From Symsagittifera roscoffensis (lineage: Eukaryota), in the NCBI RefSeq assembly GCF_963678635.1, contig NC_087064.1, forward strand, positions 46,113,437-46,177,436: a stretch of DNA of 64,000 nucleotides. Reading direction: 5' to 3'. Position 1 is the stretch's first letter. Every line of letters begins with the position of its first letter. Under the pieces are notes generated by a model. It did not search any database and had not been told where the DNA came from. It worked only from the letters and a program-made list of their open reading frames with translations. A program made the position numbers and the translations under genes. Positions 8,780 to 23,000 of this stretch are shown piece by piece.

Positions 8780-11700
8780 CTAGGACCTCTTCAGATGATT
8801 TGCCATTTCTATTCTATTAACCTCGGCCTTTTGCTGGGTGGCCCAATTACGTCGCTTGCGAGCTACTCCACTGTCCAACTTCTTCCAGCAGTCCTCCATT
8901 TCTTTCAATGTTTCAAGGGCCACCCACCACGTCCGGGAGGTGTTCCTCGTCTTGTTCCTTTCCAATGGATCACTTGTCACTCGCTTGCCCGTGGCCTGGT
9001 GTGCCTTCGAGATCCATTCTTTGCCGACATCTACTTCCCATGTCTGTCCGTTCGTTGAACCTCTCTTCACGTTTATCTTCTGAGGCTTGAAGTCTTCCCC
9101 CGATGTCGAACTGGTGGAAACCTCTATTTCCCTCTCTACTTCAAGTGGTCTTCTGAGCTCCGAGCTGCTCTTGTATGCCGCCGTCTTGCATCGAGCCAAA
9201 ACCATGGGCGCCGTCTCTCTCAAGTTTCCTTCCGAAACAGCATCCACTGAAGGACTACCCAATCCTTCCACTTCTCTCTTCCTCTTGCGAGTCTTCACAT
9301 CTCTACTTGAGGGTGTTGTGGCTACCATCACTGATTCGACCTCTCCATCCACTCCTTCCAACTCTTGCCTCCCCCCTGCTCGAGCCTTAAGGATATTAGT
9401 ACTTTTAATCATATTACTAGTCCCAACCTTATCCCTTTTTATATCATCAACCATTTTATCTACAGTTTTTTGTCTCCGAGTAGAGCTGTCCTCACATTTT
9501 TCTTCTCTAGTCTTCGATCGTGAATTCCTCAGCTCTACCAGCTTGCTCAGTAGCTCTTTTCTCGCCTTCTCATCCAGGCCCGTCCCTATCAGAAGCGGTT
9601 CTCCAAATCTTACGACTGTGTCCCACAGTTCCTCCTTGAATTTGTCCAGCGTCGTCTCGCTGCCCACTTCTTGATTGAATTCTTCCAAGAACTCCTGCCA
9701 AGCATCGTCCTTCAGTGATCCCAGGAATATGTCCCTGTTCCCTTCGAAAGTGTTCTTTTCCCTTTCCTCCGAGCTCAAGAGTATCATCCCCATATTGAAG
9801 GTCTCACTTGCCAATGGCAATTCCAGATCCTTCCGGGGGGACGGAATCAGGGGTGGTGTGGCAGTATCTGCCCAATTCTCCTCGCTCAAGTCTTTCAACA
9901 GCTCTTGAGTGGTGAGCTCCTCCCCTGATGGCCCTGGTTCAGGCGTATTCCCCACTTCCATGTCTTCACCGGCTTCACTGAGAGTTTCATCCATACTCTC
10001 TTCTTCTGACTCATGTCTCCTTCTCTCGAGAATTTTCTTAAATCGGTCCTCGACGGGTCCACTCCTCTTGTCTCCAGGCGTGTCCACGGACAGTGGTGAT
10101 GGTGTCGTAGGATCCAGCTTTTTGTATTCCGTCAGTGCTACATGCAGTTGACCTGCTGCATCTAGTTCTGTTCCCTCCTGTCTTATTTCCACCTGTTCCA
10201 AGCCATAGGGTGCCTTATATTTTCTCGTGGCAAATTTCATGTCGTCCACCAATGCGACGTGCCCCTCCATCACGATCATCCTGCCATCATCCCATATGGG
10301 TAACATGTTCTCAAGTCCCTCCTTCTCTAGAGTTCTCAAGACCTTCCGCGCCTCATACCCTGGGGGCTGCGAACCTCTACTCTTTTTCGCTTGCGTCGTC
10401 CACGAATTTACCTTCATCTCGCTGGTATGGAAGTAGACCGCCGCCGTGTAGCCAATGAACAGGGGGTCCCAGCCATCAGTGAAATCCTTCTGCATTTCCT
10501 CCGTCGTCATCCTCGCCATTATGGAGGGAACTACCAAGGGACTATTCATTCCTAAGGTCATCCTCCTGACTATTGGGAACTCAGGCATGGTGGCTGGGAG
10601 GATTTCTTTCTCCATTATGGTCTCCAGCTCCCTCTTCACCAGTGCGAAGCACTCCTTCCAGGCAGGAATTCTCAAGATTTCTCGTCCGTCCGCCGTCAAT
10701 GGGTTCAAGTTCCAGAATTTGGTATACATTTCGATGGGACCCTCTCGCTTGCCTCCCATTCTACATTGCATTTGCCCCCTGAAGTTGTACACTATTAGCT
10801 CGGCATCTTTCACCTTTCCAAAGAGTACCGTGTTGCTCATTCGCCCTCTGAGCACCTCCTGCTGACACCAATTTAACGCCGTCCCATCCAGTATACTGAT
10901 AAGACTCAAGTGCGTTACAGAGTGACGATACGTTGTCACCAGGGGGTCTGGGAACGCGTACGTCACTGCTGGACCATAAATGCAGGTCACCACCTCCTCT
11001 AGGCCCCGGATTATCCCCATTGGGTCCGACCTCATTGCCAGGCATAGGTCCGTCAGCAGAGGCATCCCTCTGTTCGTCTTCTTCCATTCTTCTCTCGAAG
11101 TTGGATTCTCATCTTCACCCGTCATGTGCCGATTTTGCATCATGAGGTATTGTACTAGCAACGTCTTCAACCCTGCGGCACACTTGTAGGAGCTGGTTTC
11201 AATGCTCGTGTGGACTCTCCCCATAGACAGAGGCTCTCCATATTCCATTAATCGATGAAACGACACCAATTCCCCATGGGTCAAGAGTACTAGTGCCAGG
11301 TACCCATCAACTCGAAGTGTCTCCACTCCCCGACTAAACATGTATGCTGGGCCCATGTTGAACAAGTATCTGGGGTAGACCAAATACAGGGCCAAGAGCA
11401 GGCTGATGGGCATGCCCAGTATCTCCTGCACGAAGGCTCCAAAGATAGTCGCCGTGGTACCGAATATTCCTGCCAAGAATTCCTTCTCCCAGCAAGGACT
11501 CAAGAACTTGAGAATCTCGTAATCCCTCCTAGTCTTTAACTTGCCTTTGGCGTGCTCTCTCCAGAACCCTCCAATCGTCACTTCATTGGCGGCCGAGACA
11601 AATCTAGCCACCGTCATGTCTCTTGTTTCGGCCAGCTCCAGTTGTTTCTCCAGAAAACTCCAGACTTGTTTCACGAGGGGTGGTGCTTCCTCCCTTGTCT

Positions 11701-20071: not shown

Positions 20072-23000
20072 CTATTGAAACAGACCCAACTCGCAGGCAA
20101 ACCCTGTCTTGTCCCTGTCCTGCTTCCTTAGTGGTACTTGCCAAAAGGCCGAGCCTAAATCAAGAGTCGTAAAAAATTTTGCATCACCTAACTTCGAGAG
20201 GCTCTCATCAATCCTAGGTATGGGATAGGCATCCTTCACCGTGACGGAGTTCAGGTATCGAAAGTCACAACAAAACCTCAACTGGTCGCCTTTCTTTTTG
20301 GCCATTACTACTCCACACGCCCACGGTGACTTGGATGGTTCTATCATGTCATACTCTAGTAACGTCTCGATCTCTTTTCTACACGCGTCCGATTTGTGTG
20401 GGGTTATGCGCCTCGCCCCCTCCCTGTGTGGTACCGCGTTTTCCTCAAGTTCTATTTCATGCTCAACGAAATTACAACACCCGATATCCGCCTTATGCCT
20501 CGAAAAAACTTCCTCGTTCCGCTCTAGTAAGTCCTTGATGGCTTCGAGCTGTTCATCTTTCAGTTTGCCCCTCAAATGTTCAATCTCCGGCAGGACCGGT
20601 TTTTCATTTTGCATTTCATCTAGTGTGGGTCGCTCTGGAAAGTTCGAACAGCTCGAAAGACCATCATCCGTTTCTGACTTAAGTGATTTAATAAGACCTG
20701 AAGAATCTTTTATTTTCTGCAATCGTCTCAAGATACAAATTTTGTCCCTGTGATTGGGGCAATCAACAACTTCATTTTGTTTTGAATTCTCAATTGTTTC
20801 ATATCGAGTTTTAACCGGTAAAGCATATCCCAGTTTCCTCCCTCTTTGTATCGTGATCGGTATATCAAGGGTATTCAACAAGACACTGACGCAGAGGCCG
20901 CTCTTCGTTATCGAAAATGATCTTCCTAAAACAGCAGCACTTTGACTATTAGGATTCGGAACTATGCACGCTTGCTTGTTGTCACTTAGTTCATTGTAAT
21001 TTTTCATCCTCAAACTTACGATTGCCGCTTCATTAGCTTTTAGCCTCACCCTCCTACTCAAGAATACCGGTGCTTTGTTTTCATTTGCCATTATTAAATT
21101 TACCGGTTTGATTGCGTACCTCCTATCCGGGTTCCGTATCCTGAACATTGCGTTATTTAAATCAATCGTTACGTCGAAATTCCTGATGAAGTCTCTGCCC
21201 AAAATGAATTGGTCAGATTCATCTAGGTTTTCTACCACGATAAAGCTCATCCACAGGTTACGTTCCCCCAAATTGAGGGCTATTATCGGCGTCCTGCCCA
21301 GCACCCGTAGGGCCCCTTTGTTTGCAGCTGACAGCCGTATTCTCGAGTCTATCAAGTCACCTTTGTCAAAGCCCATCTTCTCCCAAGTTTCGATTGGTAT
21401 AACGCTCAAGACTGCTCCCGTGTCAAGCAACCCACGCAACTGAGTCTTTTTGCCACTTATATCCAGCACGTGCCCTGTCACATCTGCCTCCGTCCCGATG
21501 TGCATTGCATCTTCCTCAAGCATGGCGCAGTGTCCAATCGATCTCACTTTCAATTCTTCTTTCCCTACGTAGATTTGTCCAATCAGGTCTTCGTCACATG
21601 TTATCATCGTCTTGGTATAGATGTTAATCCCATCTATATTTAGCATCACCTCGTGTGGACCGTAAGCTTCAGTATATCTGCTATCAACACGTACCGACTT
21701 GCTGCCCCCTCTCATGAGTAGTGCTCTCAGTGCTCTGGAAGTCGTTTGTGGGCTTATACCACTCAAATAGTCTGCATACACGTCAATGTGCATTATTGTC
21801 TGGTCGCTCGGCTCGCTCAAGTTTCTGGTTACCTCGTGGCCGCCCACTGTGATTATCGACATTATCCTTGCGCCGATTTTCGATATGCCAAAAGGCTTAC
21901 CTGTCACCATTTTCACAGTATTGCAATTCCCGGTCTTTGTTGAGCCCGGTACAGCCTCTGGTATTTGTTTTGATCCGGTTAATGCTTCGTTAAAATTCTG
22001 TCTTTCTATCTCCAGCTTTAGTCGTTGCTCTATTTCTTTCGCAGCCAGATCCTGTTTCACTTTGGCAATTGCTTCCGTGGCCGCTTTCTCATAATTTATC
22101 TCTAGAGAGTTCCCTGCCGCGGATTCTATGGCATCATTAACATGTGATACAGCTTTCACTGTCTTCGTCGGCAATTCCGTGCTTGGTGCTCCTAAGTTCC
22201 TCGATTCAAATTCGTTTTGCCTGTTCCGCTGATTCTGCACCGCCGCTAATGCCAACTTATGTTTAGGGTGACTCTGGTCCTTGACCGCTTCCCAGAACAA
22301 GGGACAATCCATTCGGAAGTGCCCCTCCTGGTTACAGAAGAAGCATCTTGCGCCTATCTTGATGATTAAGCCACTATAGTACTCGTGTTCCTCCATCTGG
22401 CTCATGTCCTCCTCATCTGGTGCATATCCTAGACTCTTCATGCCTTGTTTGTATGTTGTGCAGTCAGCCACGTGGTGATCCGCCGACCCGCAGTTCGCGC
22501 ATGATCTGCGCTTGTCCATGTCATCTCTAGGTTTGTACCATGACGACCTCTGCGGTTGACTTCCCCCTTGCGTGTTCCTGTTTTCTGAATACGAGTATTT
22601 CTTGAGTTTCATCAGCATGTATTCCCTTGATTTCTGTCTCATTTCTTCTGGGGTTGGTGCGCTGTCTTTCGACAATGTGTAGTATGTTGCTAACATTGTC
22701 CTTAAGTCGTCACTTTTTACCCCATCAATGAACTTCGAGGCAATGCTAAAGTTTCTTCTGTTTGTCGACTCCTCTGGGTCACTCCTTCTTCTCAAGCTCT
22801 CGAGATCATCTAGGAACCGATCTATTGACTCCTCGTCCCTCTGCCTTCTCTTTTCAAATCGCATCATCGCTTGGTGACCCTTCATGCCTGACCCGAATCG
22901 ATTCAGCAATATCTCGAAGATCTTGTCCGCGGTATCGCGTTCTTCTTCTTTCTTCGCAACCACGCATTTTAATGCTGTGCCTTCTAAATTGCTGAGTATG

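Follow-up and report, generated by a model that had tools for sequence, protein, structure and literature searches.

Do three in-frame TAG codons in a giant retrotransposon of Symsagittifera roscoffensis record the deamination of its complementary DNA (cDNA), or do they belong to the decay of a dead copy? The DNA analyzed is a stretch of 64,000 nucleotides (the window; contig NC_087064.1, positions 46,113,437 to 46,177,436 of the forward strand). It contains copy 1, a complete long terminal repeat (LTR) retrotransposon of Ty3/gypsy type on the minus strand (Table 1), together with two more distant elements, copies 2 and 3. A first-pass annotation had noticed that the coding frames of copy 1 are interrupted by three TAG codons, each in place of a tryptophan codon (TGG), and had attributed them to APOBEC-like deamination of minus-strand cDNA or to a mutational bias. 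Copy 1 belongs to a giant Ty3/gypsy family that is very abundant in the genome of a divergent animal; it was inserted recently and is now dead. The three stops are probably unrelated G-to-A point mutations that arose in the ordinary pseudogenization of a young copy.

The three TAG codons and the further lesions of copy 1

Reading of the minus strand confirmed the three stops at the positions first proposed: CTG TTT CAA TAG AAA CGG ATG CCG for TAG 1 (the stop at 20074-20072), GAA GGA TAG GAT GAA GAC for TAG 2 (18523-18521), and AAG AGG TCC TAG CAG AGT for TAG 3 (8782-8780). A stop scan showed that the gag-pol frame (23581..15587) is broken by TAG 1 and TAG 2 only, and the frame of open reading frame (ORF) 3 (13702..6170) by TAG 3 only. 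The earlier statement that the three TAGs are every in-frame stop holds for these two frames; as the sole lesions of the element they do not stand, given the deletions described below. The tryptophans reported for the other elements of the window were also found, copy 2 reading LFQWKRMPFGL (36154..36002) at site 1 and copy 3 having W at sites 2 and 3, with E at site 1.

The direction of the changes was established with relatives of copy 1. When gag-pol with its tryptophans restored was used as a protein query, family matches came only from ENA assemblies, where 2,307 members fall into one cluster at 90% identity, and a 705-amino-acid (aa) query running from reverse transcriptase (RT) to integrase (IN) gave 1,457 matches at E<=1e-40. 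DNA was obtained from ten places, nine of which hold members of the copy 1 family (L001-L004 and L006-L010; 91.8-98.8% identical). The closest relative obtained, L008 (98.8%), has lost the site 1 region to a 628-bp deletion; the next is L007 (97.5%), and L009 and L010 are mosaics at 93-94% identity. Copies 2 and 3 share only 64-80% DNA identity with copy 1 and represent different subfamilies rather than recent sisters, which makes them too distant to serve as polarizing outgroups except at the three codons themselves. A change was called private when the copy 1 base occurred in no relative and at least 80% of at least three relatives agreed on another base. By this definition, 74 of 21,075 comparable positions carry a private substitution in copy 1, 73 of them outside a 13-14-bp tandem array in its leader.

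At all three sites every covering relative has TGG (Table 1), which establishes both the TGG-to-TAG direction and the privacy of the changes to copy 1. The proposal that these are independent, derived G-to-A changes is therefore upheld. Exact look-up of the 1,149-aa and 359-aa ORF products of the window found none on record. A family protein in ENA, P0069 (87% identity to P0026, the family reference), stops right before the Trp of TAG 2, between GEREG and WDED; this protein end suggests that a nonsense change struck that codon independently in a distant copy.

Copy 1 is also broken in other ways, contrary to what had been implied by the description of the TAGs as its only interruptions. Three private frameshifting deletions of 19, 1, and 1 bp were found (Table 1). 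The 19-bp deletion, with AACA microhomology on its flanks, separates gag-pol from its first ~290 codons. The two 1-bp deletions shift the frame of the second ORF (ORF-B) twice, so that the single ORF of relatives, which is longer than 2,950 codons, is split into ORF2 and ORF3. A fourth private indel, a 2-bp deletion at ~25310, lies in the noncoding leader. Copy 1 thus has six ORF-breaking lesions (three TAGs and three frameshifts), not three.

Strand symmetry, clustering, and context of the private substitutions

If minus-strand cDNA had been deaminated, G-to-A changes would be expected to stand out on the sense strand. Outside tandem repeats, the private spectrum of copy 1 comprises 22 G-to-A, 18 C-to-T, 4 A-to-G, and 6 T-to-C changes and 23 transversions. 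The G-to-A to C-to-T ratio of 22:18 (1.22) is to be compared with the 1.45 expected from base composition (6,199 G and 4,276 C), and there is no excess (p=0.76). The nine other copies gave the same picture when pooled (447:295, or 1.52, versus 1.45 expected; p=0.29), and no copy was significant singly. The first-pass annotation had itself held that the three TAGs would be a coincidence if many copies showed no G-to-A excess, and none was seen in copy 1 or in the pooled relatives.

Published work offers a direct yardstick. The screen of Knisbacher and Levanon (PMC4866542) looked for runs of at least five consecutive G-to-A changes with at least 10 clustered sites in all; its edited LTR elements have G-to-A more than 10-fold above C-to-T and ~23 edited sites per element, and no such editing was seen in 19 invertebrate genomes. 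Copy 1 shows neither the strand excess nor clustering in runs of at least five: its longest unbroken stretch of G-to-A changes has 4 members, whether copy 1 is compared with L008, its closest relative, or its private changes alone are counted (permutation p=0.30).

The sequence context of the changes is more equivocal. A G follows the mutated G in 9 of the 22 private G-to-A changes, against an availability of 26.8% (p=0.11), and the corresponding fraction in the other nine copies is 32% (Fisher p=0.26), so that the predicted GG-to-AG excess is not significant overall. Among non-CpG changes, the proportion is 8 of 15 versus 26% available (nominal p=0.023, one among several tests). A looser list of copy 1-derived changes gave a GG context in 12 of 21; it includes unreliable tandem-array positions and was set aside for the stricter set.

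What the spectrum does show, on both strands, is a loss of GC. Private GC-to-AT transitions outnumber AT-to-GC transitions 40 to 10, and the surplus of G-to-A over A-to-G (22 versus 4) is mirrored by that of C-to-T over T-to-C (18 versus 6), which indicates a general GC-to-AT bias. The mutational bias that had been named as the alternative to editing is, in this general form, borne out. Moreover, CpG sites account for 13 of the 40 GC-to-AT transitions versus an availability of 18% (p=0.019), and the host genome appears to carry CpG methylation.

Other context-dependent processes were considered and rejected. Deamination of methyl-CpG does not fit the three TAG sites, which are all T[G]G and not CpG, and a Dcm-like CCWGG context applies to site 3 only, which lies within CCTGG. 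Repeat-induced point mutation, the fungal process that produces dense C-to-T and G-to-A changes at CpA/TpG on both strands, is contradicted by several features: T precedes only 6 of the 22 private G-to-A changes (24% available), there are only 40 GC-to-AT changes in 22 kb, and the best matches of the host are to animals.

These data bear directly on the proposal that an APOBEC/AID-like enzyme lightly deaminated the minus-strand cDNA at 5'-CC while copy 1 was being formed, leaving a few GG-to-AG changes of which three fell on Trp codons. All three stops are indeed GG-to-AG with the first G changed, and APOBEC3G prefers GG-to-AG at the first G. The non-CpG GG context given above is in keeping with the proposal, as is the finding that the mirror context, a preceding C, occurs in only 1 of the 18 private C-to-T changes. 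The strand bias and the clustering that such editing leaves are lacking, however, and the GG fraction resembles that of the other copies. The host, moreover, is a divergent metazoan that is not vertebrate-like. Taken together, we consider this explanation very unlikely, and the corresponding claim of the first-pass annotation is not borne out.

APOBEC3G-hypermutated proviruses and endogenous retroviruses (vif-deficient HIV-1, HERV-K, and murine IAPE; PMC4866542) do resemble copy 1 in that TGG-to-TAG via sense-strand GG-to-AG is their textbook route of inactivation. They differ from it in their G-to-A excess, their runs of at least 5, and their ~23 edited sites, against 9-10 GG-to-AG changes in 22 kb of copy 1, and the host of copy 1 is outside the vertebrate-like lineages. 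Less probable still is that a hitherto unrecognized AID/APOBEC-like deaminase lightly edits giant gypsy cDNA at 5'-CC in this lineage, or, in a remoter variant, that A-to-I editing repairs the amber codons to Trp.

Ordinary decay as the probable origin of the three TGG-to-TAG changes

The chance of the observed stops was computed from the spectrum of copy 1 itself, applied to the reverted ancestral sequence. The number of nonsense changes is unremarkable, with 2.8 expected and 3 observed, and the probability that all three would be of any one kind is 0.011. The nine other copies together carry 17 nonsense substitutions: three each of CAA-to-TAA and AAG-to-TAG, two each of AAA-to-TAA and TGG-to-TAG, one TGG-to-TGA, and six other kinds once each. 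The share of TGG-to-TAG, ~12%, is close to the ~10% expected. Truncated family proteins were less informative: the nonsense spectrum drawn from the ends of more than 100 of them was noisy, many ends lying at M, A, or D codons that are not one step from a stop and thus pointing to frameshifts, and W accounted for 3 of ~46 clean ends. The DNA-level counts were used in its place.

Losses of tryptophan codons are seen in L010, one of these nine copies, and in copy 3 of the window. L010 carries two TGG-to-TAG changes (element positions 6254 and 14171) among its four nonsense changes and has G-to-A and C-to-T in equal numbers (53:53), with no editing signature. The degraded copy 3 of the window has four W-to-TGA and zero W-to-TAG changes. 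Copy 3, on the plus strand, has dozens of stops and an internal tandem duplication of ~2.7 kb (47886-50560 versus 50556-53267; 93.7% identical) that covers protease (PR) and RT, and it has E for the conserved W of LFQ-W-KR in both duplicates.

Some observations weigh against ordinary decay. TGG-to-TAG changes are expected only 0.29 times in copy 1, and the probability of at least three is 0.003, or 0.001 given three nonsense changes; the GG context of the non-CpG changes points the same way. Identity to the nearest relative is no higher than 98.8%, so that changes made before and after integration are inseparable on the copy 1 branch, and the assemblies that hold the relatives may come from another individual or species than the window.

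Editing, however, does little to remove the coincidence. In-frame Trp codons make up 85 of 1,740 GG sites (4.9%), and three editing events on them would imply ~61 GG-to-AG changes, where 9-10 exist; under editing, the probability that at least 3 of these 9-10 fall on Trp codons is 0.008-0.011. Since a deaminase is blind to the reading frame, an editing model barely lessens the coincidence, and its gain in likelihood over decay is only about two- to three-fold, on top of a low prior. That all three stops are TGG-to-TAG is a real but post hoc oddity of copy 1 and is best treated as coincidence.

Ordinary decay would place the three TAGs among the ~70 substitutions and 4 small deletions that copy 1 has accumulated since its split from the nearest sampled relative. 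Most of these changes were probably acquired as double-stranded genomic DNA after integration, under a mutation regime that is AT-biased, CpG-enriched, and equal on both strands. The sense strand is G-rich, and G-to-A is thereby the commonest change; Trp codons are among the few codons that a transition turns into a stop. Such a spectrum is the one ordinarily left by a dead repeat that drifts toward its AT-rich background (flanks ~38% GC, element ~48%).

Several measurements are consistent with this course of events. The 3 mismatches in 884 LTR positions predict ~38 post-insertion substitutions element-wide (95% confidence interval 8-112), to be compared with the 74 private ones, which means that a large share of the latter can be post-insertion decay. 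Within coding sequence, 27 private changes are synonymous, 30 are nonsynonymous, and 3 are nonsense, a split which indicates that constraint on the copy 1 branch was largely relaxed, and the three private frameshifting deletions show that decay proceeded by other routes too. Copy 1 resembles other decaying LTR-retrotransposon insertions: its LTRs are nearly identical, private substitutions are scattered along it together with nonsense codons and short deletions that shift the frame, and its spectrum is GC-to-AT-biased and CpG-enriched on both strands. It is unlike them in that its nonsense changes are all of one rarer kind, TGG-to-TAG.

Alternatively, the TAGs and perhaps the deletions could have preceded integration, as reverse-transcriptase errors or as lesions of a defective source that was mobilized in trans by intact members. 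The family is huge (the 2,307-member cluster and the 1,457 matches) and includes many intact copies that could complement a defective one, with ORFs of 2,892-2,933 aa. The private divergence of 0.35% is about twice the per-LTR value of 0.17%, so that about one private change in two may be older than the insertion. The TAGs and the three deletions are nevertheless found in 0 of 9 relatives, and among the best 120 of the 1,457 matches there is no near-identical 514-aa protein bounded by TAG 1 and TAG 2. The CpG-enriched, strand-symmetric GC-to-AT spectrum is, in addition, that of genomic DNA decay and not of polymerase error. An origin before integration is accordingly judged unlikely overall, although some of the lesions may have arisen in this way.

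The TAGs might also not be inactivating, if UAG were read through, reassigned, or restored to UGG in RNA by A-to-I editing. The internal stops are all TAG while the natural ORF ends are all TGA or TAA, and UAG is the preferred ADAR triplet, with inosine read as G to give Trp. The amber/W site of hepatitis delta virus, where ADAR converts UAG to UIG, offers a precedent for a genomic amber where Trp is required. Unlike that case, copy 1 has other lesions, including three frameshifts that recoding could not repair, and its relatives simply encode TGG at all three sites. Intact relatives are also without in-frame TAG over ~2,900 codons, their first ORFs being open for 2,892-2,933 codons in the standard code. 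Reassignment or readthrough, which had been raised as a way in which the TAGs might be harmless, is thus not borne out, and any such rescue is scarcely credible.

Architecture and insertion site of copy 1

The features of copy 1 are collected in Table 1.

Table 1. Features of copy 1, in coordinates of the window
Feature	Position	Strand	Evidence
Copy 1, complete 22,650-bp Ty3/gypsy-type LTR retrotransposon	4857..27506	-	LTR pair by self-BLAST and alignment; Pfam domain order
5' LTR, 884 bp, TG...CA ends	26623..27506	-	3/884 mismatches to 3' LTR
3' LTR, 884 bp	4857..5740	-	Self-BLAST, alignment to 5' LTR
N-terminal gag-pol ORF fragment, severed by private deletion	23572..24363	-	Fused in frame to gag-pol in intact relatives P0020, P0027 (2,933 aa)
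Gag-pol frame (gag, PR, RT, RNase H, IN, C-terminal extension), TGA end	15587..23581	-	Frame scan, Pfam
TARG1/OARD1-like macrodomain, C terminus of pol	15617..16009	-	phmmer versus PDB 2L8R, 4J5Q, E = 4e-6, residues 27-157 of last 166 aa
First ORF-B fragment (ORF2 of the first-pass annotation), coiled-coil-like	13968..15080	-	Frame scan; fused with ORF3 in relatives
Main ORF-B fragment (ORF3 of the first-pass annotation), TGA end	6170..13702	-	Frame scan
GDSL/SGNH lipase-like domain of ORF-B	13390..13786	-	Coordinates projected from relative L007
TAG 1, Trp to amber in RT motif LFQ-W-KRMPFGL	20072..20074	-	TGG in 8/8 covering relatives; W in copy 2
TAG 2, Trp to amber in GEREG-W-DEDSD, RNase H-IN linker	18521..18523	-	TGG in 9/9 relatives; W in copy 3
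TAG 3, Trp to amber in HLKRS-W-QSLLK, ORF-B	8780..8782	-	TGG in 5/5 covering relatives; W in copy 3
Junction of private 19-bp frameshifting deletion	23570..23588	-	19 bp present in 9/9 relatives; gap in 7/7 long alignments
Private 1-bp deletion, GGTTAGGAG to GGTTAGAG, ORF-B frameshift	13971..13985	-	8/8 long alignments
Private 1-bp deletion, GGGACCAAC to GGGCCAAC, second ORF-B frameshift, in GxND block of GDSL-like domain	13648..13662	-	Alignments to relatives

Copy 1 has the defining traits of a Ty3/gypsy element, namely direct LTRs with TG...CA ends and a target site duplication, and the order gag (CCHC)-PR-RT-RNase H-IN. The LTRs are 99.66% identical with termini TGTAAC...GGCACA, and Pfam gave the domain order zf-CCHC, Asp_protease, RVT_1, RT_RNaseH and RT_RNaseH_2, Integrase_H2C2, and rve. 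The insertion lies within an LTR of copy 2, which is the older element. When the sequences on either side of copy 1 (4371-4856 and 27507-27906) are joined, they make up a single 883-bp unit with ends similar to TGTAAC...GGCACA, and the same unit lies uninterrupted at 38647-39529 as the other LTR of copy 2, an empty-site paralogue that is ~98.6% identical. Comparison with this paralogue showed a 3-bp target site duplication, AAT, at 4854-4856 and 27507-27509, which is short for Ty3/gypsy.

Two kinds of repeat occupy the 5' untranslated leader (24725-25076 and 25968-26148): a tandem array of ~26 units, each 13-14 bp long (TGTCCCAAGACTCC), and a 70-bp unit repeated 2.6 times. The length of the array varies between relatives, which makes alignments within it unreliable. 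An Rfam scan of the window gave no match.

In the whole-element frame scan, the natural ORF ends of copy 1 were TGA in three cases and TAA for the upstream fragment. The first ORF of intact relatives (P0020, P0026, and P0027) begins ~290 codons upstream of the gag-pol ATG of copy 1 and takes in what is in copy 1 a separate 263-aa ORF. The second ORF, which corresponds to ORF2 plus ORF3 of copy 1, is longer than 2,950 codons in both L001 and L005 and is continuous across the junction for 1,544 aa in L007 (ORF-B at 19319-27080 in L001 and 17128-21762 in L007). On residues 433-564 of the L007 ORF, Pfam Lipase_GDSL_2 scored 35.8 bits (cutoff 32.9). The ORF-B fragments of copy 1 gave no Pfam match, nor did the rest of the second ORF outside the GDSL-like domain.

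The ~130 C-terminal residues of pol, after the integrase, resemble human TARG1/OARD1 (C6orf130), an ADP-ribose hydrolase. The top-ranked hits of a literature search included no paper tying macrodomains to LTR retrotransposons. The macrodomain could be a counter-defense against ADP-ribosylation. GDSL ORFs, for their part, are known from rotifer LTR elements and Terminons (PMC5408684, PMC6431247).

With its 22.6 kb, very long second ORF with a GDSL-like domain, and thousands of copies, the family is similar to other giant gypsy or extra-ORF LTR elements, such as planarian Burro, plant Ogre, and the bdelloid rotifer elements with GDSL esterase/lipase ORFs (PMC6431247, PMC5408684). It differs from them in the TARG1-like macrodomain on pol and in a second ORF that runs to more than 2,950 codons, and the likeness described is one of architecture.

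The nature of the host was gauged from a gene beside the related element L005. This gene, POLR3H (RPC8), appears as a single exon of 193 codons (3645-4226, minus strand). Its best named matches are all animals, from many phyla and at no more than 51% identity, and its 79-99% matches occur only in ENA assemblies, which indicates that the host is a divergent metazoan; its genome is rich in repeats.

Were the APOBEC-like reading true, it would extend cDNA deamination as a defense against retroelements to a divergent invertebrate lineage. The evidence points the opposite way, to stops that came about as a dead copy decayed in the normal manner. A pattern of TGG-to-TAG at three sites is no evidence of editing without tests of strand bias, clustering, and context against close relatives. 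Copy 1 is also less intact than it had appeared, with its three private frameshifts. More noteworthy is the element itself: a gypsy retrotransposon of 22.6 kb whose pol ends in a TARG1-like macrodomain and whose second ORF, longer than 2,950 codons, includes a GDSL lipase-like domain.

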